From Elusimicrobiota bacterium (GTDB lineage Bacteria > Elusimicrobiota > Elusimicrobia > UBA1565), in NCBI GenBank assembly GCA_043819795.1, contig JBDREN010000140.1, forward strand, positions 1 through 64,000: a stretch of 64,000 nt of DNA, read 5' to 3'. Below, one piece after another: positions 45,851 through 61,777 of the stretch. The first letter of the stretch is position 1. The number at the start of each line of letters is the position of its first letter. The notes beneath the pieces are model-generated. The model searched no databases. It was not told the DNA's origin and saw only the letters and a list, made by a program, of their open reading frames with translations. The position numbers and the translations under genes were made by a program.

Positions 45851-46144
45851 CGCCCCGGCAGACCTTCTTGGATTTCTCGAAGGATCCCCGGACCGCAGAT
45901 CTTTCCAACGCCAGAATCCTTCGAGAAATCCGCTTCATGAACGCCGCACGGGTTTACCGCGCGTGTACATGCCCGGTCGGGCGCTTTCCGGCTGACAATA
46001 AAAATTCTTCTTTAAAAACAGGCCCTATTTCTACATCTATGTCAACGCCTTGTCCGTGACATGTCAGTGAATCCCGGTTATAATTATTAGGGAATCGGAT
46101 GACGTGCGCGGACGCGCTCATGCCGGCGTCCCGAGGGGGCTGCG

Positions 46145-49100
46145 ATGATGAAGAATAGAACGCATTTGAAGTCCGCATATATCGCGTTCGCCGCTGCGGC
46201 GGCCGCTATGGCTCTCGTTTTTCCGATGACGGAACCCGCGAACGCGGCGGTCCCGGCCGGATGTCCGGACGGCGTGGTGAGCTATTGGACGTTCGACGCG
46301 GGAGACGCGGCCGACGATTCCGACGCCAACCACGGGACCGTCCACGGCGCGACAGCCGCGCAGGGAAGGTCCGGCCAAGGATTCTATTTCGACGGGGAGG
46401 ACGATTATATCGAGGTTCCTGATTCCCCGAATCTGGATCCCGAACCGACGCATGGCTACGTCGAGATGCCTCACTCGCCGAATCTGGATCCTGAGCTGGC
46501 GCATGACTACGTCGAGGTGGCTCATTCGGCGGATCTGAATCCTGAGCCGACCCACGCGTACGTCGAAGTTCCTCATTCGACGAGTCTCGACCTGGCTGCG
46601 GGCCAGTTCACCCTGGAAGCGTGGATCCGCCCAAGGGCGACCGCCGGCGATTACAGGGCGATCATCGCGAAGATGGGCTGGACCGATACAGGCCGGTGGA
46701 GCTACTACTTGGCGGTCACGGACAGGGGCGCCTTGTACGCCGCCTTTGTGAACGGCCATGGCGCGCATTTCCCGTTGTCCAGCCGGGACGGCTCGATCAA
46801 GACGGGCGTTTGGCAGCATGTGGCGGCCACCTACGACGGCGCCGTGCTGCGCTTGTACATCGACGGCGTCGAGGCCGCGTCCCGGGAGGCCGACGGCAGT
46901 CCCAGGCAAAACGACTATCCCCTGTCCATCGGAAGATGGACCAACGGAGACTCCAACCAGTTCGCCGGCGCCATCGACGACGCGGCGGTCTACGGCGCGG
47001 CGTTGAGCGCCGAGGAGGTCCAGAGCCACTACCTCGCCGGCCCGGCCGGCTATTGCGACGGCGGCTGCCCGGCGGGCATGGTGGGCTATTGGCGCTTCGA
47101 CGAGGGAGCCGGAACGGCCGCCGCCGATGCCATCGGCGGCAACGACGGGACCATCCATGGGGCGGCCTGGACGGCCGGCATGGCCGGCAGCGCCCTGGAC
47201 CTCTCGGGCAATGAGTTCACTTTGGAGGCGTGGATCAAGCCGCGGGCGGTCAACGGCGATTACAGGAGCATCATCGCGAAGATGGGCTGGGACGATACGA
47301 GCCGGTGGAGCTACCACTTGGCGGTCACGGACAGGGGCGGTCTGCACGTCAACTTCGCGAACGAGCACGGCTGGAGCTTCGCCTTGTCCAGCCGGGAGGC
47401 CTCGATCCAGGCGGGCGTCTGGCAGCACGTGGCGGCCACCTACGACGGCGGCATCCTGCGGTTGTATATAGACGGCGTCGAGGCCGCGTCCCGGGAGGCC
47501 GGCGGCGGTCCCAGGCAAAACGACTATCCGGTGTCCATCGGAAGATGGTATGCGGGGGATCCCAACCAGTTCGCCGGCGCCATCGACGACGCGGCGGTCT
47601 ACGGCGCGGCGCTGAGCGCTGAAGAACTCCGGAGCCACCACCTCGCGGGCCCGGCCGGCTATTGCGACGGCGGCTGCCCGGCGGGCATGGTGAGCTATTG
47701 GCGCTTCGACGAGGGAGCCGGAACGGCCGCCGCCGATGCCATCGGCGGCAACGACGGGACCATCCATGGGGCAGCCTGGACGGCCGGCATGGCCGGTAGC
47801 GCCCTGGACTTCTCGGGCAACGAGTTCACTTTGGAAGCGTGGATCAACCCGCGGGCGACCAACGGCGATTACAGGAGCATCATCGCGAAGATGGGCTGGG
47901 ACGATACGAGCCGGTGGAGCTACCACTTGGCGGTCACGGACAGGGGCGGTCTGCACGCCAACTTCGCGAACGAGCACGGCTGGAGCTTCGCCTTGTCCAG
48001 CCGGGAGGCCTCGATCCAGGCGGGCGTCTGGCAGCATGTGGCGGCCACCTACGACGGCGCCATCCTGCGCTTGTATATCGACGGCGTCGAGGCCGCGTCC
48101 CGGGAGGCCGGCGGCGGTCCCAGGCAAAACGACTATCCGGTGTCCATCGGAAGATGGACGTCGGGGGATCCCAACCAGTTCGCCGGCGCCATCGACGACG
48201 CGGCGGTCTATAACGCGGTGCTGAGCGCCGATGAGATCCAAAGCCACTACCTCGCGGGCCCGGCCGGCTATTGCGACGGCGGCTGCCCGGCGGGCATGGT
48301 GAGCTATTGGCGCTTCGACGAGGGCGCCGGAGCGGCCGTTTCCGATTCGGTCGGCGGCAACGACGGGACCATCCATGGGGCGGTCTGGACGGACGGCATG
48401 GCCGGAAGCGCCCTGGACTTCTCTGGCAACGGGTTCACTTTGGAGGCGTGGATCAAACCGACAGAGATCATCGGCGACTGGCGGACGATCATCGCAAAGA
48501 TGGGATGGGAAGACACGAGCCGGTGGAGCTACACTTTGCAGGTCACGTATCATGGCGCCTTGTACGCCAGCTTCGCCAACGAGCACGGCTGGGGCTTCTC
48601 GTTGTACAGCCCCAACGGCTCGCTCGGGACCGGCATCTGGCAGCATGTGGCGGCCGCCTACGACGGCGGCTTGCTCCGCTTGTACATCGACGGCGCCGAG
48701 GTGGCGTCCCGGGAGGCCGGCGGCGCTCCCAGGCAGAACGACTATCCCCTGTCCATCGGGAGATGGTATTCGGAAGACCCCAACCCGTTCGCCGGCGCCA
48801 TCGACGAGGCCGCGGTCTACGACGCGACGTTGAGCCCTGAGGAGATCCAGGACCACTACATCGCGGGCCTGGCGGACAAGGGCTATTGCTGGACCTGCGG
48901 CACCGCCGCCGATTGCGACGATCAGAACCCCTGCACGAGCGACATCTGCGCGGACGGGCTCTGCTCCCATGACGCGGCCGCCATGGACGGCGCCCAATGC
49001 GACGACGGCAGCTCCTGCACGGCCGGCGACGTATGCGACGACGCCTCCTGCGCGGGAGCGCCGGCGCCCGACGCCGAAGGCATGGCGGGCTATTGGACCT

Positions 49101-52100
49101 TCGACGCGGGAGACGCGACCGACGATTTCGGCGACAATGACGGGATCGTCCAGGGGGCGACGCCCGCGCAGGGGAAGACCGGACTGGGATTCGATCTCGA
49201 CGGGCAGGACGATCATATCGAGGTCCCGCCCTCCCCCGAGTTGAACCTGGACGGACCCGAGGCGATGCCGGAACACGTCGAAGTGCCGCACTCGACAGCC
49301 CTGAATCCCAAGCCCTCGTATGAGTACGTCGAGGTGGCGCATTCGGCGGACCTGAATCTTGAGCCGACGCACGAGTACGTTGAAGTGCCTTTCGCGCCGA
49401 GCCTGGACCTGGACGAAGGCCAGTTCACCCTCGAGTCGTGGATCAACCCGAGGGCGGCCTACGGCGATTACAGGACGATCATGGCGAAGATCGGCTGGAC
49501 CGATACGGGGCGGTGGAGCTACAACCTGCAGGTCACCGACAGGGGCGCCTTGTACGCCGCCTTTGTGAACGACCAAGGCGCGCATTTCCCGTTGTCCAGC
49601 GAGGAGGGCTCGATCCAGGCGGGCGTTTGGCAGCATGTGGCGGCCACCTACGACGGCGCCACGCTGCGCCTGTATATCGACGGCGCTGAGGCCGCGTCCC
49701 GGGACGCCGACGGCGTTCCCAGGCAGAATCCCTATCCCCTGTCCATCGGGAGATGGACCAAGGGAGACGCCAATCAGCTCGCCGGCGCCATCGACGCGGC
49801 GGCGGTCTATGACGCAGCATTGACCGCCGAAGAGCTCCAGAGCCACTACCTGGCCGGCCCGGCCGGCTATTGCGACGGCGGCTGCCCGGCGGGCATGGTG
49901 AGCTATTGGCGCTTCGACGAGGGCACCGGAGCGGCCGCCACCGATTCCATCGGCGGCAACCACGGGGCCATCCATGGGGCGGCCTGGACGGACGGCGTGG
50001 CCGGAAACGCGCTGGACTTCTCGGGCAATGAGTTCAGTTTGGAGGCGTGGATCAACCCGAAGGCGACCTACGGCGATTACAGGACCATCATCGCGAAGAT
50101 GGGCTGGGACGACACGAGCCGGTGGAGCTACCACTTGGCGGTCGCGGACAGGGGCGGTCTGCACGCCAACTTCGCCAACGAGCACGGCTGGAGCTTCGGC
50201 TTGTCCAGCCCCGACGGCTCGCTCCAGGCGGGCGTCTGGCAGCATGTGGCGGCCACCTACGACGGCGGCCTGCTGCGGTTGTATATCGACGGCATCGAGG
50301 TGGCGTCCCGGGAGGCCGGCGGCGCTCCCAGGCGAAACGACTATCCCGTGTCCTTCGGGAGATGGTATTCGGGGGATCCCAACCAGTTCGCCGGCGCCAT
50401 CGATGATGCGGCGGTCTACGACGCGGCGCTGACCCCCGAAGAGATCCAGAGCCACCACCTCGCCGGCGCGGCCGGCTATTGCGACGGCGGCTGCCCGGCG
50501 GGGATGGTGAGCTATTGGCGCTTCGACGAGGGCGCCGGCGCGGCCGTTTCCGATTCCGTCGGCGGCAACCACGGGGTCATCCATGGGGCGGCCTGGGCGG
50601 ACGGCATGGCCGGTGGCGCCCTGGACTTCTCGGGCAATGAGTTCTCTTTGGAGGCGTGGATCAACCCGAGCGCGACCTATGGCGATTACAAGACGATCAT
50701 CACGAAGACCGCCTGGGACGACACAAGCCGGTGGAGCTACAACCTGCAGGTCACCGACAGGGGCGGTCTGCACGCCAACTTCGTCAACGAGCACGGCTGG
50801 AGCTTCGCATTGTCCAGCCCGAACGGCTCGCTTGCGACCGGCGTCTGGCAGCACGTGGCGGCCACCTACGACGGCGGCATCCTGCGCTTGTATATCGATG
50901 GGGCCGAGGCCGCGTCCCGGGAAGCCGGCGGCGGTCCCAGGCGAAACGACTATCCGGTGTCCATGGGGAGATGGTATGCGGGAGATCCCAACCATTTCAC
51001 CGGCGCCATCGACGAGGCGGCGGTATACGGCGCGGCGCTGACCCCCGAAGAGGTCCAGAGCCACCACCTCGCCGGCGCGGCCGGCTATTGCGAAGGCGGC
51101 TGCCCGGCCGGGATGGTAAGCTATTGGCGCTTCGACGAGGGAGCCGGCACGGCCGTATCCGATTCCATCGGCGGCAACCACGGGACCATCCATGGGCCGG
51201 AGTGGACGGCCGGCATGGCCGGCAGCGCCCTGGACTTCTCGGGCAATGGGTTCACTTTGGAGGCGTGGATCAACCCGAGCGCGATCACCGGCGATTGGAG
51301 GGCGGTCATCGCGAAAACCGGCTGGGACGACACAAGCCGGTGGAGCTACAACCTGCAGGTCACGTATCATGGCGCCTTGCACTCCACCTTCGTCAACGAG
51401 CACGGCTGGGGCTTCTCGTTGTACAGCCCCAACGACTCCATCCAGACGGGGATCTGGCAGCATGTGGCGGCCGCCTACGACGGAGCCATGCTGCGTCTGT
51501 ACATCGACGGCGCCGAGGTGGCGTCCCGGGAGGCCGGCGGCGTTCTGCGGCGCAACGCCTATCCGCTGTCTATCGGGAGATGGTATTCGCCAGACCCCAA
51601 CCCGTTCGCCGGCGGCATCGACGAGGTGGCGGTCTACGAGAGGGCGCTAACCCCCGCCGAGATCCAGGCCCACTACGGCTCGGCCGGCGGAAGTCATTGC
51701 GAGGATTCCGCCTCCTGCGCGGACGCCGACGGTGATGACTACGGCGCGGCCGGCACCGACACGAGCGCCTGCCCCAACGCCGGCTATGACTGCGACGATG
51801 GCGATCCCTCCGTCATCCCGGGCGCCGTCATCGAGACGGACGTCTTCGGCTACGACAACGTGGGAGAATGCCGGACAAGGAAGGAAGAATGCGACGGGGC
51901 GACCGGCGCTTTCGAGAGCATTCAGACCGCGGTCGGCCCTTCGGCGGAAGCCTGCGACGGCCTGGACAACGACTGCGACGGCTCCACGGACGAGGGATTC
52001 CAGGACTTCGACGGCGACGGGACCGCGGACTGCGTGGATCCGGACGACGACGATGACGGCCTGCCGGACGCGGGCGACGCCTGCCCGTTCGAGCATCCAC

Positions 52101-52378
52101 AGGGAGCCGACGCCGACGCGGACGGCTGCATCGACAGGCTCGAGGACGCCCCCGAGGTCGTGCAGGAGCTGGACCTGCCGGCCGGGACGTCCAACGAGCT
52201 TGAATCCAAGCTCGACGGGGCAATCGCGGCCCAGGAAGACGGGAACACCGGGGCCGCGACCAACAAGCTGAAGGCGCTCATCAACAGCGTGAAGGCGCAG
52301 CGGGGCAAGAAGATCTCGGAGGAGGACGCGGACCTCCTCATCGACTTCGCGAACAACGCCATAAACGGCATGGAGTGA
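46145..52378 (+). CDS. Giant secreted protein with 8 LamG/pentraxin-like jellyroll units, Cys-rich linker, MopE/TSP3-like metal-binding motifs and a C-terminal FIMAH-like helical domain
   Basis: Signal peptide; YWxFD, FTLEAW, WQHVAATYDG..LRLYIDG, FAGAIDD repeated 8 times (609-nt period); EACDGLDNDCDG, DFDGDG..DC.D. Confidence 0.9.
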   Translation: MMKNRTHLKSAYIAFAAAAAAMALVFPMTEPANAAVPAGCPDGVVSYWTFDAGDAADDSDANHGTVHGATAAQGRSGQGFYFDGEDDYIEVPDSPNLDPEPTHGYVEMPHSPNLDPELAHDYVEVAHSADLNPEPTHAYVEVPHSTSLDLAAGQFTLEAWIRPRATAGDYRAIIAKMGWTDTGRWSYYLAVTDRGALYAAFVNGHGAHFPLSSRDGSIKTGVWQHVAATYDGAVLRLYIDGVEAASREADGSPRQNDYPLSIGRWTNGDSNQFAGAIDDAAVYGAALSAEEVQSHYLAGPAGYCDGGCPAGMVGYWRFDEGAGTAAADAIGGNDGTIHGAAWTAGMAGSALDLSGNEFTLEAWIKPRAVNGDYRSIIAKMGWDDTSRWSYHLAVTDRGGLHVNFANEHGWSFALSSREASIQAGVWQHVAATYDGGILRLYIDGVEAASREAGGGPRQNDYPVSIGRWYAGDPNQFAGAIDDAAVYGAALSAEELRSHHLAGPAGYCDGGCPAGMVSYWRFDEGAGTAAADAIGGNDGTIHGAAWTAGMAGSALDFSGNEFTLEAWINPRATNGDYRSIIAKMGWDDTSRWSYHLAVTDRGGLHANFANEHGWSFALSSREASIQAGVWQHVAATYDGAILRLYIDGVEAASREAGGGPRQNDYPVSIGRWTSGDPNQFAGAIDDAAVYNAVLSADEIQSHYLAGPAGYCDGGCPAGMVSYWRFDEGAGAAVSDSVGGNDGTIHGAVWTDGMAGSALDFSGNGFTLEAWIKPTEIIGDWRTIIAKMGWEDTSRWSYTLQVTYHGALYASFANEHGWGFSLYSPNGSLGTGIWQHVAAAYDGGLLRLYIDGAEVASREAGGAPRQNDYPLSIGRWYSEDPNPFAGAIDEAAVYDATLSPEEIQDHYIAGLADKGYCWTCGTAADCDDQNPCTSDICADGLCSHDAAAMDGAQCDDGSSCTAGDVCDDASCAGAPAPDAEGMAGYWTFDAGDATDDFGDNDGIVQGATPAQGKTGLGFDLDGQDDHIEVPPSPELNLDGPEAMPEHVEVPHSTALNPKPSYEYVEVAHSADLNLEPTHEYVEVPFAPSLDLDEGQFTLESWINPRAAYGDYRTIMAKIGWTDTGRWSYNLQVTDRGALYAAFVNDQGAHFPLSSEEGSIQAGVWQHVAATYDGATLRLYIDGAEAASRDADGVPRQNPYPLSIGRWTKGDANQLAGAIDAAAVYDAALTAEELQSHYLAGPAGYCDGGCPAGMVSYWRFDEGTGAAATDSIGGNHGAIHGAAWTDGVAGNALDFSGNEFSLEAWINPKATYGDYRTIIAKMGWDDTSRWSYHLAVADRGGLHANFANEHGWSFGLSSPDGSLQAGVWQHVAATYDGGLLRLYIDGIEVASREAGGAPRRNDYPVSFGRWYSGDPNQFAGAIDDAAVYDAALTPEEIQSHHLAGAAGYCDGGCPAGMVSYWRFDEGAGAAVSDSVGGNHGVIHGAAWADGMAGGALDFSGNEFSLEAWINPSATYGDYKTIITKTAWDDTSRWSYNLQVTDRGGLHANFVNEHGWSFALSSPNGSLATGVWQHVAATYDGGILRLYIDGAEAASREAGGGPRRNDYPVSMGRWYAGDPNHFTGAIDEAAVYGAALTPEEVQSHHLAGAAGYCEGGCPAGMVSYWRFDEGAGTAVSDSIGGNHGTIHGPEWTAGMAGSALDFSGNGFTLEAWINPSAITGDWRAVIAKTGWDDTSRWSYNLQVTYHGALHSTFVNEHGWGFSLYSPNDSIQTGIWQHVAAAYDGAMLRLYIDGAEVASREAGGVLRRNAYPLSIGRWYSPDPNPFAGGIDEVAVYERALTPAEIQAHYGSAGGSHCEDSASCADADGDDYGAAGTDTSACPNAGYDCDDGDPSVIPGAVIETDVFGYDNVGECRTRKEECDGATGAFESIQTAVGPSAEACDGLDNDCDGSTDEGFQDFDGDGTADCVDPDDDDDGLPDAGDACPFEHPQGADADADGCIDRLEDAPEVVQELDLPAGTSNELESKLDGAIAAQEDGNTGAATNKLKALINSVKAQRGKKISEEDADLLIDFANNAINGME

Positions 52379-58987: not shown

Positions 58988-61777
58988 TCAGGGCCGGAGC
59001 TCCAGGTTGTCCGCTCCCGGGTTGTTGAAGCCCCCGGCGGTCCGCCCGCCCGCCTCGCCCAGGTCCTCCTCATCGGGGAGGGGCAGCTGAGCCTCCCCTT
59101 GCGACGAGCGGGGGGACCGGGTCCTCTTCCGGGCGCCGCCCGAGGAGCCTTGCGAGCCCCGGCGAGAGCGGGAGACGCCGCCCCGCAGAAGGTCCGCTGC
59201 CTCGGCATTGAGTCCCTTCAACGCCTTGCGGGCGAGATCGACCTCGAACCGGTAGGCGGCGGTGGGCTTTTTGCTTTGAGCCCCCTTGAACACCTTGAAC
59301 TCGACCAGCCAGACGTTAGCGCCCACGGCGCCGGCCGACCATTCCGGCGTGCTGCCGGGGATGAGGAAGGAGTACTGCAGCCACTGCCCGACCGAACCCC
59401 GCCGCTCGTCGAGGAAATAGTTCTTCACGAACTCGATCGCTTCCACCCGCTGGTCCTGTATGTAATCGGGGCCCGGCGGGGCGGCCTGGGTGGGCTGCGC
59501 GGCCGGGACGGCGGCCGGCGGGAGGCCCGGCTCCGGACTCCGCTCGGGGGATTGAGCCTCCGGCTCCTCCTCGAGGCCCGTGGCGGCGTCCTCCTGGAAA
59601 ACGCCGCCCGCGCCCTGCACACCGGTCCCGAACTCCTCTTGCGGCGACGTCTCCGGAGCCATGTCCACCAGCTGCACCACCTGCTTCGGGTTCTTCAGGA
59701 ACAGGAACATGACCACCACGAGACCGACCAGGGCGGCGCCCAGCCCGATCAGGAACTTCTTCGGCGGCACCCGCTTGGACTTCGAGAGCGCCGGCGTGGG
59801 TCCCTTCTTCCCCGATGGAAGGGCCGGTCCGCCGATCGTGACCGGGGACTTCGTGGCCGTCGTCGGCTGGATGGCCGGCGCGCCTCCGCCCAACATGTCC
59901 TCGAAAGACTGCATCCCCGGCGCGGGCGGGAACGCTCCGGCCTCAGGGCCGCCCGCCTCGACTCCCGTCAAGGGCGGAGTGGCGCCGGGAAACGGAATCT
60001 GCCGGCCCGGCCCGGTCAGCGGGATCTCGGGCCCCTTCAATATGGTGTGAGGCAGCCCCAGCTGCTGCGCCTGGCCCGGCTCCGAGAGCGGGATCGGCAT
60101 CGGCGTAGGGGCCTGCCCGGGCATCCCCTGGATGAGCTCGACGCCCTCAGGGGGCTGTCCGGCGCCGAACCCGCCTGTCTGCCAGGCTTCCGGCTCCGGC
60201 GGCGTCAGACTGAGGGACTCCAATCCCGACGTATCGTCCGGAGGCTGCCCCGGCACCCCCATGAGCATCGTCTTCGGCTGCTCGAAAGAGCCCGACATCG
60301 CGGGCTGGTCGACGGCCCCGGCTTCGCCGGGACCCGGCAGCGGCGGAGGCTCCAGGGGAAACTCGGGGACATCCGGCGTCGGGCCGCCTTCGGGCAGCGG
60401 CGGCGGAGCCTGAAGGCCGGGCTCGGACGCCGAAGGGTGGTGAATCGTTGCGGCGTCTTGCGTCGGCCCCCAGGAAGGCGGGGCTCCGGGCAGATCGGGA
60501 CCGGAAGATGCTTCGCCCGCTTCCGGGATGGGAACCCCGGCAAGAGGGGCTTGCGCGGCGGGACCGGCGTATTCCTCTGAGGCGGCCATGGGTGGCGCCT
60601 CCAACTCCGGGGGCGCCTCATCGGCGCCCGCCGCGGGCGCCGGAAACCCGCCCAAAGGAGCTTCCACCGCCGGACCACCGGCCGCCTCTTCGCCGGCGAC
60701 CATGGGTCCGGCCGCTTCCGGAGGCGGAAGCATGGTCTCATCGGGGACGGGAGGCACGAACTCCAACGGCGCCGCCATTTCAGAAACCGATTTGAGGGCC
60801 GTCGCCTCGGGGACTCCGGTATCGAGCGGCGGCGACGTCTCCGCCCCCTCTGGTGGAGCGGCCTCCGCCGGCGCCTTCGCCCGCTCCGGGGCCGCCTCCG
60901 GGACATGGATATCCGGGATATCCGGGATATCCAACTCGGGAACGCTCTCGGGGCGGGCGGGGCCATCGATCGTCCCGGGGCCGGGCACGGTGGCAGCCTC
61001 GTCCGCGGCTCTAAAGGCATCCGAAATCGGGGACGCGCCTTCGATTGGAGACTCGGGGAAAGGCGCTGCCTCTCCCGCGGGCGCGGGGTTCTCGGCGCGC
61101 GCCTCGTCCGCGACCTTGGGCGCCTCCGATGTCGGGAAGACGATTCCCTTTTGAGATCCGGGGATAAACGCGGCGCCTGCCGCGGACGCGGCGGCCCCGG
61201 CGGCGCCGGGAGGCCGCGCCTCGATCTCGGCTACCCGGGCGCGGAGGTTCTCGAGAGCCCGGTCTTTTTCGGCCAGCAGGCGGTCCTTCTCGTTGAGCTT
61301 GTCGAGGATCTCGTTCTGGCGCTTCTCGTTGCTTTCAAGCTGGTCCTTGAGCTCGCAGAGCCGCGCCTCCAGCTCCCGCGTCTCGCGCTCCGCGGATTGC
61401 GCTCCGGAACGGAGATGCCCCGGCAGGACGCCCCAGAGCGGGGACAGCCGGGGGTCCCTCTGGATCTCGGCGGCCCATTCCTCGGACACGCCGATGCTCT
61501 CGAGCGCGGCGTGGGCCTCGTCCTGGAAGCTCTCGAAAGCCTCCGAAACGACGCCCGGCGCGAGCGACGCGGAGGGCGCGCCCCCCCCTTCCGCCCCGCC
61601 GAGCGACGTCTCCGCCGGCTCCAGCACGCTCTGCAAGGGCTGCCAATCCTGCTCCTTGGTGCCGAGCGCCCCTTCTCCGCAGACGAGGCTGTCCCCGTGA
61701 AGACCGGGGACCGAAGCGATCTCCTCGGCGCCGAAAGGACCGAGGATGCGGGAGTCCTGGTAGACCCAGTAGCGCAT
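58988..61777 (-). CDS. Membrane-anchored protein: N-terminal GYF-like domain, coiled coil, Pro-rich linker, TM helix, periplasmic domain
   Basis: MRYWVYQDSRILGPF...WQPL; long P/A/E-rich stretch; FLIGLGAALVGLVVVMFLFL. Confidence 0.7.
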   Translation of the reverse strand: MRYWVYQDSRILGPFGAEEIASVPGLHGDSLVCGEGALGTKEQDWQPLQSVLEPAETSLGGAEGGGAPSASLAPGVVSEAFESFQDEAHAALESIGVSEEWAAEIQRDPRLSPLWGVLPGHLRSGAQSAERETRELEARLCELKDQLESNEKRQNEILDKLNEKDRLLAEKDRALENLRARVAEIEARPPGAAGAAASAAGAAFIPGSQKGIVFPTSEAPKVADEARAENPAPAGEAAPFPESPIEGASPISDAFRAADEAATVPGPGTIDGPARPESVPELDIPDIPDIHVPEAAPERAKAPAEAAPPEGAETSPPLDTGVPEATALKSVSEMAAPLEFVPPVPDETMLPPPEAAGPMVAGEEAAGGPAVEAPLGGFPAPAAGADEAPPELEAPPMAASEEYAGPAAQAPLAGVPIPEAGEASSGPDLPGAPPSWGPTQDAATIHHPSASEPGLQAPPPLPEGGPTPDVPEFPLEPPPLPGPGEAGAVDQPAMSGSFEQPKTMLMGVPGQPPDDTSGLESLSLTPPEPEAWQTGGFGAGQPPEGVELIQGMPGQAPTPMPIPLSEPGQAQQLGLPHTILKGPEIPLTGPGRQIPFPGATPPLTGVEAGGPEAGAFPPAPGMQSFEDMLGGGAPAIQPTTATKSPVTIGGPALPSGKKGPTPALSKSKRVPPKKFLIGLGAALVGLVVVMFLFLKNPKQVVQLVDMAPETSPQEEFGTGVQGAGGVFQEDAATGLEEEPEAQSPERSPEPGLPPAAVPAAQPTQAAPPGPDYIQDQRVEAIEFVKNYFLDERRGSVGQWLQYSFLIPGSTPEWSAGAVGANVWLVEFKVFKGAQSKKPTAAYRFEVDLARKALKGLNAEAADLLRGGVSRSRRGSQGSSGGARKRTRSPRSSQGEAQLPLPDEEDLGEAGGRTAGGFNNPGADNLELRP

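Follow-up and report, generated by a model that had tools for sequence, protein, structure and literature searches.

Each of the two repeat blocks of P0001, a 2077-residue protein encoded by a single open frame without stops in the window (the 64,000 nucleotides of DNA analysed here), most probably forms a nest of four LamG domains, each set inside the one before. No other arrangement completes every domain as simply, and we give it a probability of about 80%. A LamG domain is divided here into a first segment A, which ends in ALD[FL], a short strand B and a core C that begins with F[TS]LEAW. The chain would run outward via four B strands, with one B for each domain, and then back through permuted C-linker-A units. 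From the tip to the base, the predicted domains would be B4-C1-A2, B3-C2-A3, B2-C3-A4 and A1-B1-C4. The B strands would dock in mirror order, A1 would close on C4 with a Cys40-Cys915 bond, and neighbouring domains would be joined by two short links. Since each block starts and ends in its base domain, the arms are expected to branch sideways.

Order of the domain pieces

A motif parse of the open reading frame (46145-52378, + strand) reads A-B-B-B-B-C-L-A-C-L-A-C-L-A-C two times, with L for the linker, and bears out the order A-B-B-B-B-C-A-C-A-C-A-C, twice, given in the initial annotation. The gene and its parts are as follows.

46056..46084, + strand: sigma-70-like promoter match with 11 of 12 consensus bases (0.1 expected in shuffles), predicted by consensus only
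46145..52378, + strand: whole open reading frame of P0001, with holA and the convergent rpsT as neighbours
46145..46246, + strand: likely signal peptide, residues 1-34, with a basic start, a hydrophobic core and A-N-A, read by eye from the translation
46262..46390, + strand: A1 of block 1 with Cys40 (motif parse); would supply the first half of the outermost domain
46406..46606, + strand: four tandem B strands of block 1, period 17 aa (51 nt), spanned by one contig; predicted outward leg
46607..47203, + strand: C1-linker-A2; would form the innermost domain together with B4, although the model placed A1 here instead
47204..47215, + strand: first B-less junction, four residues long (motif parse); later units hold five more at the equivalent place
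47216..47812, + strand: C2-linker-A3 permuted domain, matched at model residues 322-517/518 by single domains of pentraxin order; putative acceptor of B3
47825..48421, + strand: C3-linker-A4 permuted domain, matched at model residues 524-719/720 by 4dqa and 1gyk as one domain; putative acceptor of B2
48434..48889, + strand: C4 with Cys915; would supply the second half of the outermost domain and close on A1-B1
48890..49069, + strand: Cys-rich spacer joining blocks 1 and 2, without a Pfam match
49049..51700, + strand: block 2, with Cys969, A1', the B array, three C-linker-A units and C4' with Cys1852 (motif parse)
51701..52378, + strand: acidic Cys-rich tail with a MopE-like motif (PF11617, 27.1 bits, cut-off 27) and a C-terminal FIMAH-like domain (PF22888, 24.3 bits, slightly below the cut-off of 24.8)

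The cysteine parity of the protein fits nested and collinear orders equally and lends support to neither. At the tail domain the paralogue P0002 scores 24.5 bits, against 24.3 for PF22888 in P0001. Laminin_G_3 (PF13385) matches P0001 in eight stretches with 763.6 bits (cut-off 27.6). An assignment as TafC family fimbrial protein (NF052521) was rejected, as its 339.7 bits lie below the cut-off of 410 and stem solely from the LamG stretches. P0001 is probably a secreted surface adhesin or lectin. This putative role is suggested by the LamG fold, by the probable signal peptide and by 5hon, the structure that matches best, which was solved with an arabino-oligosaccharide.

Four B strands per block are confirmed, but each start first reported lies one codon upstream of the measured positions, which are 46406, 46457, 46508 and 46559 in block 1 and 49214, 49274, 49325 and 49376 in block 2. 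The second array (49214-49423) has periods of 20, 17 and 17 aa. Block 2 is 77% identical to block 1, and the C cores within the gene share 77-94% DNA identity, that is, the units are not identical. Because the repeat units differ in their DNA, and because 46257-46608, with the entire first B array, is covered with zero differences by a low-depth contig from run X1, which may be the source sample, an assembly artefact is unlikely. The listed read pieces cover parts of the gene, and none of them bridges a B-less junction.

These junctions set P0001 apart from other LamG proteins. Three units per block had been described as lacking B, with ALDF joined to SGNEFTLEAW, and the six junction sequences agree, reading ALD[FL]-SGN[EG]-F[TS]LEAW. 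A degenerate version of the pattern matches six times in the window and never in 100 shuffles. The gap between the end of A and the start of C is four residues at all 16 junctions of the family (P0001 and its two paralogues), versus at least 15 residues in 902 of 902 measurable domains from 381 other LamG proteins. Judged by sequence, a four-residue junction is too short for an ordinary LamG domain. Whereas every unit of an ordinary tandem array has its own B between A and C, six of the eight units of P0001 lack one, and the B strands are pooled upstream.

Matched repeat counts in three paralogues

The same genome encodes two paralogues of P0001, each with a block of three B and three C and a block of four B and four C. 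Across all three proteins the B and C counts are equal in six of six related, non-independent blocks (4/4, 4/4, 3/3, 4/4, 3/3, 4/4). The number of A segments is the same as well in each of these related blocks, that is, first and second halves balance. The proposal that surplus B strands equal the B-less units in number thus holds in every block. In the suggested check in homologues, the counts match in the two paralogues; no relative outside the genome was found in the sets searched. The difference between three and four repeats may be a single event, since the blocks are related and the two in the window are products of a block-level duplication. Among the three paralogues, the 22 C cores share 67-95% DNA identity, and the unit proposed to be inserted is a copy of its host domain.

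The ten internal B repeats keep the strand motif, with Leu in 10/10, Val in 9/10 at two places and Glu in 9/10. Uncorrected pN/pS is 0.46 for internal B, compared with 0.37 in terminal B and 0.58 in C. When similarities among B strands are compared with those among C cores in mirror order, rho is 0.32, a value reached in 0.043 of 5000 permutations within blocks and 0.003 within genes; collinear order gives no signal (-0.09, -0.04). The mirror signal, computed on non-independent pairs, stems from the paralogues: the window blocks tie (mirror/collinear r 0.74/0.75 and 0.96/0.97), and in one paralogue block both correlations are negative.

The nest probably originated when a B-C-linker-A unit, taken from a tandem array, was inserted with a register shift of one strand, behind B rather than ahead of it. 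Growth of an arm would then take a tandem duplication of B (51-60 nt) and another of C-linker-A (609-612 nt), both small, and complete domains would arise only where the two are paired. On balance, we lean slightly towards a wider reading in which P0001 is a length-tunable, self-zipping lectin arm. It would thread its single strands in reverse order through a row of permuted LamG domains and extend by paired but separate 51-60-nt and ~610-nt duplications, with counts held equal by selection, and its register would be one of a broader, undescribed habit of LamG self-nesting in cellular surface proteins.

Structure model and alternative pairings

Block 1 was modelled with AlphaFold2 on an alignment of the six family blocks and 28 other tandem LamG proteins, which favours collinear pairing as in a string of beads, holds four to five rows across B2-B3 and tied A1-B1 to C1. 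A single-sequence run (pLDDT 32.3) was set aside. The alignment-based model (pLDDT 81.8, pTM 0.49) predicts a LamG beta-sandwich that matches AbnA with Z 24.4 and rmsd 2.3 over 194 aligned residues, and Foldseek and ESM Atlas searches returned LamG-type families as their only matches. Pairings were derived from the first and last aligned residues of structural matches, not from coordinates. Read in this way, B1 is modelled as a strand that shares a domain with A1 and C1 (matches of canonical targets span model residues 7-265, Z 24.4). Residues 94-143, which hold the B2, B3 and B4 strands, are disordered (pLDDT ~33), and most of C2-C4 is modelled at pLDDT 80-95.

C2 and A3 are matched together by solved domains in which the C core comes first, namely 8hgh (model 322-517, 179 aligned, Z 18.8, rmsd 2.5), 3flp (322-517) and 4pbp (322-518). 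C3 and A4 are matched by further domains of this kind, 4dqa (524-719, 175 aligned, Z 19.6, rmsd 2.5) and 1gyk (524-720). The first ~30 residues of the pentraxins are left unmatched in the model alignments, and dimethylformamidase, with the sequence order B-C-A, matches from residue 524 onwards (202-203 aligned, Z 23). In the model the C core folds with the following A, as in a permuted LamG domain, over the aligned ranges 322-517 and 524-719. The permuted inner domains C2-A3 and C3-A4 are supported by the model, as it paired them despite an alignment that favours the collinear order. A2 has a pLDDT of 54-71 and the C1-A2 linker one below 50, versus 79-89 for the near-identical A3 and A4, which is expected if A1 occupies the place of A2.

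Taken at face value, the model describes an ordinary A1-B1-C1 domain, permuted C2-A3 and C3-A4 with an empty B groove, and B2-B4 as a disordered loop. This is exactly what AlphaFold2 returned, with high pLDDT across most of C2-C4, but we regard it as unlikely: A2 would be partnerless and C4 would have no A, three domains would lack a strand for which all 902 ordinary domains keep the space, neither the matched counts in six of six blocks nor the conserved internal B motif would be accounted for, and the few rows over B2-B3 came with an alignment that tied A1-B1 to C1. Somewhat less probable still, the B strands might complete the inner domains in another way, either swapped between the chains of an oligomer or in a closed C2-C4 ring with A1-B1 on C1. 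Strand donation between chains is established in pilins, which offers a precedent for the swap, and an A1-B1-C1 domain agrees with the model. However, C1 and A2 are joined by the same CxxxC linker that is found within a single domain in C2-A3 and C3-A4, one chain accounts more simply for the exact count match within the chain and for the mirror-order signal, and the B-to-B links exceed the usual B-to-C loop by just 1-4 residues. Least probable of all is a bead string in which B-less A2-C2, A3-C3 and A4-C4 fold alone: ALD[FL]-x4-FT is similar to the end of a natural B, (S/A)LDL-x4-FT, and a short-homology deletion of B could therefore create the junction and slippage the B repeats, and the Cys counts suit collinear as well as nested order, but 0/902 ordinary domains have a junction shorter than 15 residues, the collinear similarity signal is absent, and the model joined C to the next A although its alignment favoured the opposite.

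The nested topology had been put forward together with structure prediction as a check of the B/C pairing. Permuted C-linker-A units in the model, short junctions, matched counts and the mirror signal argue for it, and C2-A3 and C3-A4 came out as permuted domains; the placement of A1-B1 on C1 and the disorder of B2-B4 did not follow the proposal.

Relatives and known nested systems

In word-index searches that listed the best 120 of 526 and of 377 matches, the two paralogues alone share this register. Among the best 150 of 3017 matches of an HMM search against 1.84 billion representatives, a list crowded by ordinary multi-LamG proteins through summed scores, the only whole-profile match was P0002 (12 long matches were inspected). 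None of 400 other genomes of the phylum has a match at E 1e-25, and 3 of 40 relatives have matches, all weak and partial. A scan of 8 of 64 metagenome parts gave 78 loci, in which all 55 measurable domains are ordinary, and the junction pattern matched a single non-LamG sequence in genome_contigs and, in viral_contigs, a single LamG domain of ordinary type. Among the sets searched, this nesting register occurs in one genome only. Another protein, P0356, carries a differently permuted LamG inside the same B/C loop, which favours the nested reading. A second nesting register, two to four deep, is present in other LamG proteins.

Ordinary tandem Laminin_G_3 surface proteins, domain 4 of AbnA (5hon) and 4qvs belong to the same family and fold as P0001. 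Pentraxins, pappalysin and the large subunit of dimethylformamidase have A after the C core within a domain, like the predicted inner domains, but their B adjoins C in sequence and they are un-nested. In the tandem beta-zipper and in donor-strand complementation, a row of short strands gives one strand to each domain in reverse order, between chains. P0001 would add its strands in the same reverse order, but within one chain and with the strand as part of the fold.

In cyanobacterial RNA polymerase, Si3 of the beta' subunit is a six-level recursive insertion of copies of one domain, as described in PMC10895346 and PMC13114784. Both systems would have copies of one domain, drawn from distant parts of the chain, that fold back into an elongated arm. 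Si3 is cytoplasmic, built on a sandwich-barrel hybrid motif and solved in structure, whereas the nest of P0001 is predicted, with the LamG fold, permuted inner copies and one 17-20-residue strand per domain on the way out. The word 'laminin' or 'concanavalin' does not occur in the main text or three supplementary files of PMC13114784, whose tables may use family codes. In dysferlin, a DysF domain was inserted by duplication into its own copy, giving a two-part outer domain (accessible text of PMC3898210); it is two deep, eukaryotic and of another fold, and that text describes no permutation or copy-number change.

A full-text search, with subscription papers thinly covered, had no paper on nested LamG domains among the matches listed. 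The architecture had been called unfamiliar at the outset, which is too broad, since other folds with recursive nesting have been published and other proteins contain LamG domains within LamG domains; likely new is the regular four-deep permuted nest with an outward leg of one strand per domain.

If true, recursive self-nesting, previously seen in cyanobacterial RNA polymerase and DysF, would extend to a cellular protein with an adhesion fold that is very common. The nest would be unusually lopsided, with one strand out versus ~200 residues back. Similar cases have likely been missed, because annotation shows a plain string of eight LamG domains and AlphaFold2 would half-misfold the nest. The family would also offer a clean test of compensatory repeat evolution, with two separate duplications that are useful only jointly, as well as a naturally occurring design of a branch-like arm with two strands.

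Piece order and counts in P0001 and its paralogues

The LamG protein P0001 is encoded between holA on one side and a convergent rpsT on the other, and can be read in pieces of the LamG domain: A, which ends in ALDF, the single strand B and the core C. The initial annotation had proposed the order A-BBBB-C-A-C-A-C-A-C, occurring twice, and this is borne out by the motif parse, one intact frame and eight Laminin_G_3 stretches (Pfam). Keeping that domain split and writing out the CxxxC linkers (L), each of the two blocks reads A-B-B-B-B-C-L-A-C-L-A-C-L-A-C. The B strands recur with a period of 17 or 20 residues, and at all six junctions without B, ALD[FL] is followed by four residues and then F[TS]LEAW.

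Features in the window and elsewhere in the same genome (G000)
46145-52378, + strand: P0001, single open frame of 2077 residues
L001:7204-12795 = G000:C197:40203-45794: P0002, same architecture as P0001
L002:1477-7962 = G000:C80:1477-7962: P0003, same architecture as P0001
52830-52859, - strand: sigma-70-like promoter match (11/12) in front of rpsT, the second of its kind
58988-61777, - strand: 929-residue Pro/Ala/Glu-rich frame beside type II/IV secretion-type genes

Judged by eye, the N-terminus of P0001 resembles a signal peptide. Between the two blocks lies a Cys-rich spacer; in the tail there is a motif similar to MopE, and a match to FIMAH falls slightly below the Pfam cut-off. The repeat units are not identical in DNA, and one low-depth contig, possibly from the source sample, covers the first B array end to end with zero differences. 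Upstream of the gene lies a consensus match to a sigma-70-like promoter; the stretch from rpsT to the LamG gene showed no terminator-like site.

P0001 has two close homologues, carried by contigs C197 and C80 of the same genome, and each combines a block of three B and three C with one of four B and four C; the P0003 tail differs, with thrombospondin type 3 and Cys-rich repeats. The proposed covariation of B and C counts holds insofar as A, B and C are equally numerous in 6/6 blocks of the three proteins, but these blocks are related and from one genome, so that as few as one change may underlie the match. The two blocks of P0001 share a block-level duplication, and in several paralogue blocks the C cores are 84-95% identical, a sign in the sequences of recent duplication or conversion inside blocks. 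Outside the genome, the P0001-type register was found neither among the best 120 of 526 and the best 120 of 377 matches of two sequence searches nor among the best 150 of 3017 profile hits. It was likewise not found in 400 other genomes of the phylum (E 1e-25), in 40 relatives, of which three gave weak partial matches, or in the 8 of 64 metagenome parts covered, where the 55 measurable domains at 78 loci were ordinary. The junction pattern gave one hit in genome contigs, not a LamG, and one in viral contigs, an ordinary LamG domain.

The genome is very LamG-rich: the C-core profile picks out 54 open frames, one of them a frame of about 10,000 codons on contig C15, and additional LamG genes adjoin P0002. 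In a relative, an open frame of 17,912 codons on G144:C12 (L091, L094) shows LamG-like matches.

Junctions, proposed strand docking and predicted structure

Ordinary LamG domains do not drop B. Among 381 other LamG proteins, picked by likeness to the query and not at random, the distance from A-end to C-start is at least 15 residues in 902/902 measurable domains (mode 20), whereas it is 4 in 16/16 junctions of the P0001 family. Because of this difference, the short junction likely passes from one domain into the next, and would set the domains of C1 to C4 side by side in a row. B4 would be tied to C1 via an ordinary loop. The B-to-B links exceed the ordinary B-C loop by only 1-4 residues, which suggests that successive B strands lie in neighbouring domains. 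Docking would proceed in mirror order (B3/C2, B2/C3, B1/C4), with A1 held to B1 by an ordinary turn and C4 as the sole core without a following A. This arrangement would use each piece once and is the topology first proposed. We regard full nesting of the blocks as likely, with a probability of roughly 0.8.

The internal B repeats retain their motif (pN/pS 0.46, uncorrected). B similarity tracks C similarity in mirror order (rho 0.32) rather than collinearly (-0.09), a signal that comes from the paralogues, with a tie in the window's blocks and dependent pairs. A Cys precedes every A by 7-14 residues (22/22) and another follows the last strand of every C by 27-29 (22/22), which is compatible with both the nested and the collinear order.

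The alignment used to model block 1 combined six blocks of the family with 28 other tandem LamG proteins and had only 4-5 rows over B2-B3, a make-up that couples A1-B1 to C1 and biases the result towards a bead string. The model has pLDDT 81.8 and pTM 0.49, and its numbering is residue number minus 34. It reflects two of the C-A pairings in the topology first proposed. Reading domain pairings from aligned ranges rather than coordinates, C2 goes with A3, matched by 8hgh, 3flp, 4pbp and 9k6n from 320-322 to 513-518, and C3 with A4, matched by 4dqa and 1gyk from 524 to 719-720. These solved domains start at the C core and align over 165-179 residues, exceeding the core's capacity of about 145; the first ~30 residues of the pentraxins are unmatched. 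Dimethylformamidase, whose sequence order is B-C-A, matches from 524 at Z 23. Also in favour of the nest, confidence for A2 and the C1-A2 linker is far below that of their twins. Sequence statistics and model support permuted inner domains. Contrary to the nest, the model places strand B1 together with A1 and C1 in one domain, and residues 94-143 are disordered.

Published and apparent self-nesting in other proteins

Self-nesting as such is already known from Si3 of cyanobacterial RNA polymerase (PMC10895346), with six levels (PMC13114784), and from the two-deep DysF pair (PMC3898210). Full-text literature searches found no paper on nested LamG domains.

By their sequences, other proteins put the P0001 gene among several putative cases of LamG-in-LamG nesting. 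In P0356 (residues ~496-930) a permuted LamG is inserted one deep in another's B/C loop, the same insertion site as proposed for P0001 but with a different cut point of the permutation. A second register, cut mid-A, strings first halves together ahead of second halves that are set close to one another. It occurs in large unnamed proteins, apparently as LamG self-nesting with a depth of two to four, and was recognised by eye in P0247, P0253, P0023 and P0045.

Proteins with the second register
P0247, 2090-2800
P0253, 3450-4163
P0023, P0045, P0241, P0246, P0257, P0264 and P0254

In 21 hand-picked proteins, 53/54 tight core runs have no first half between cores; the first-half count agrees in 16 of these 54 runs and is too low in 38, a shortfall due in part to halves that are visible by eye but not caught by the pattern.

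Proposed origin and function

The P0001 junction sequence resembles a natural B tail, and an out-of-register event fits for this reason: the nest would have arisen by insertion or recombination displaced by one strand. Later, B and C-L-A would each have been duplicated on their own, and the arm would lengthen only when the two events were paired. Since each block would start and finish in its own base domain, two arms would branch off the main chain, bearing four lectin-type surfaces apiece, and the two short links between neighbouring domains would restrict motion. The putative function of P0001 is likely adhesion.
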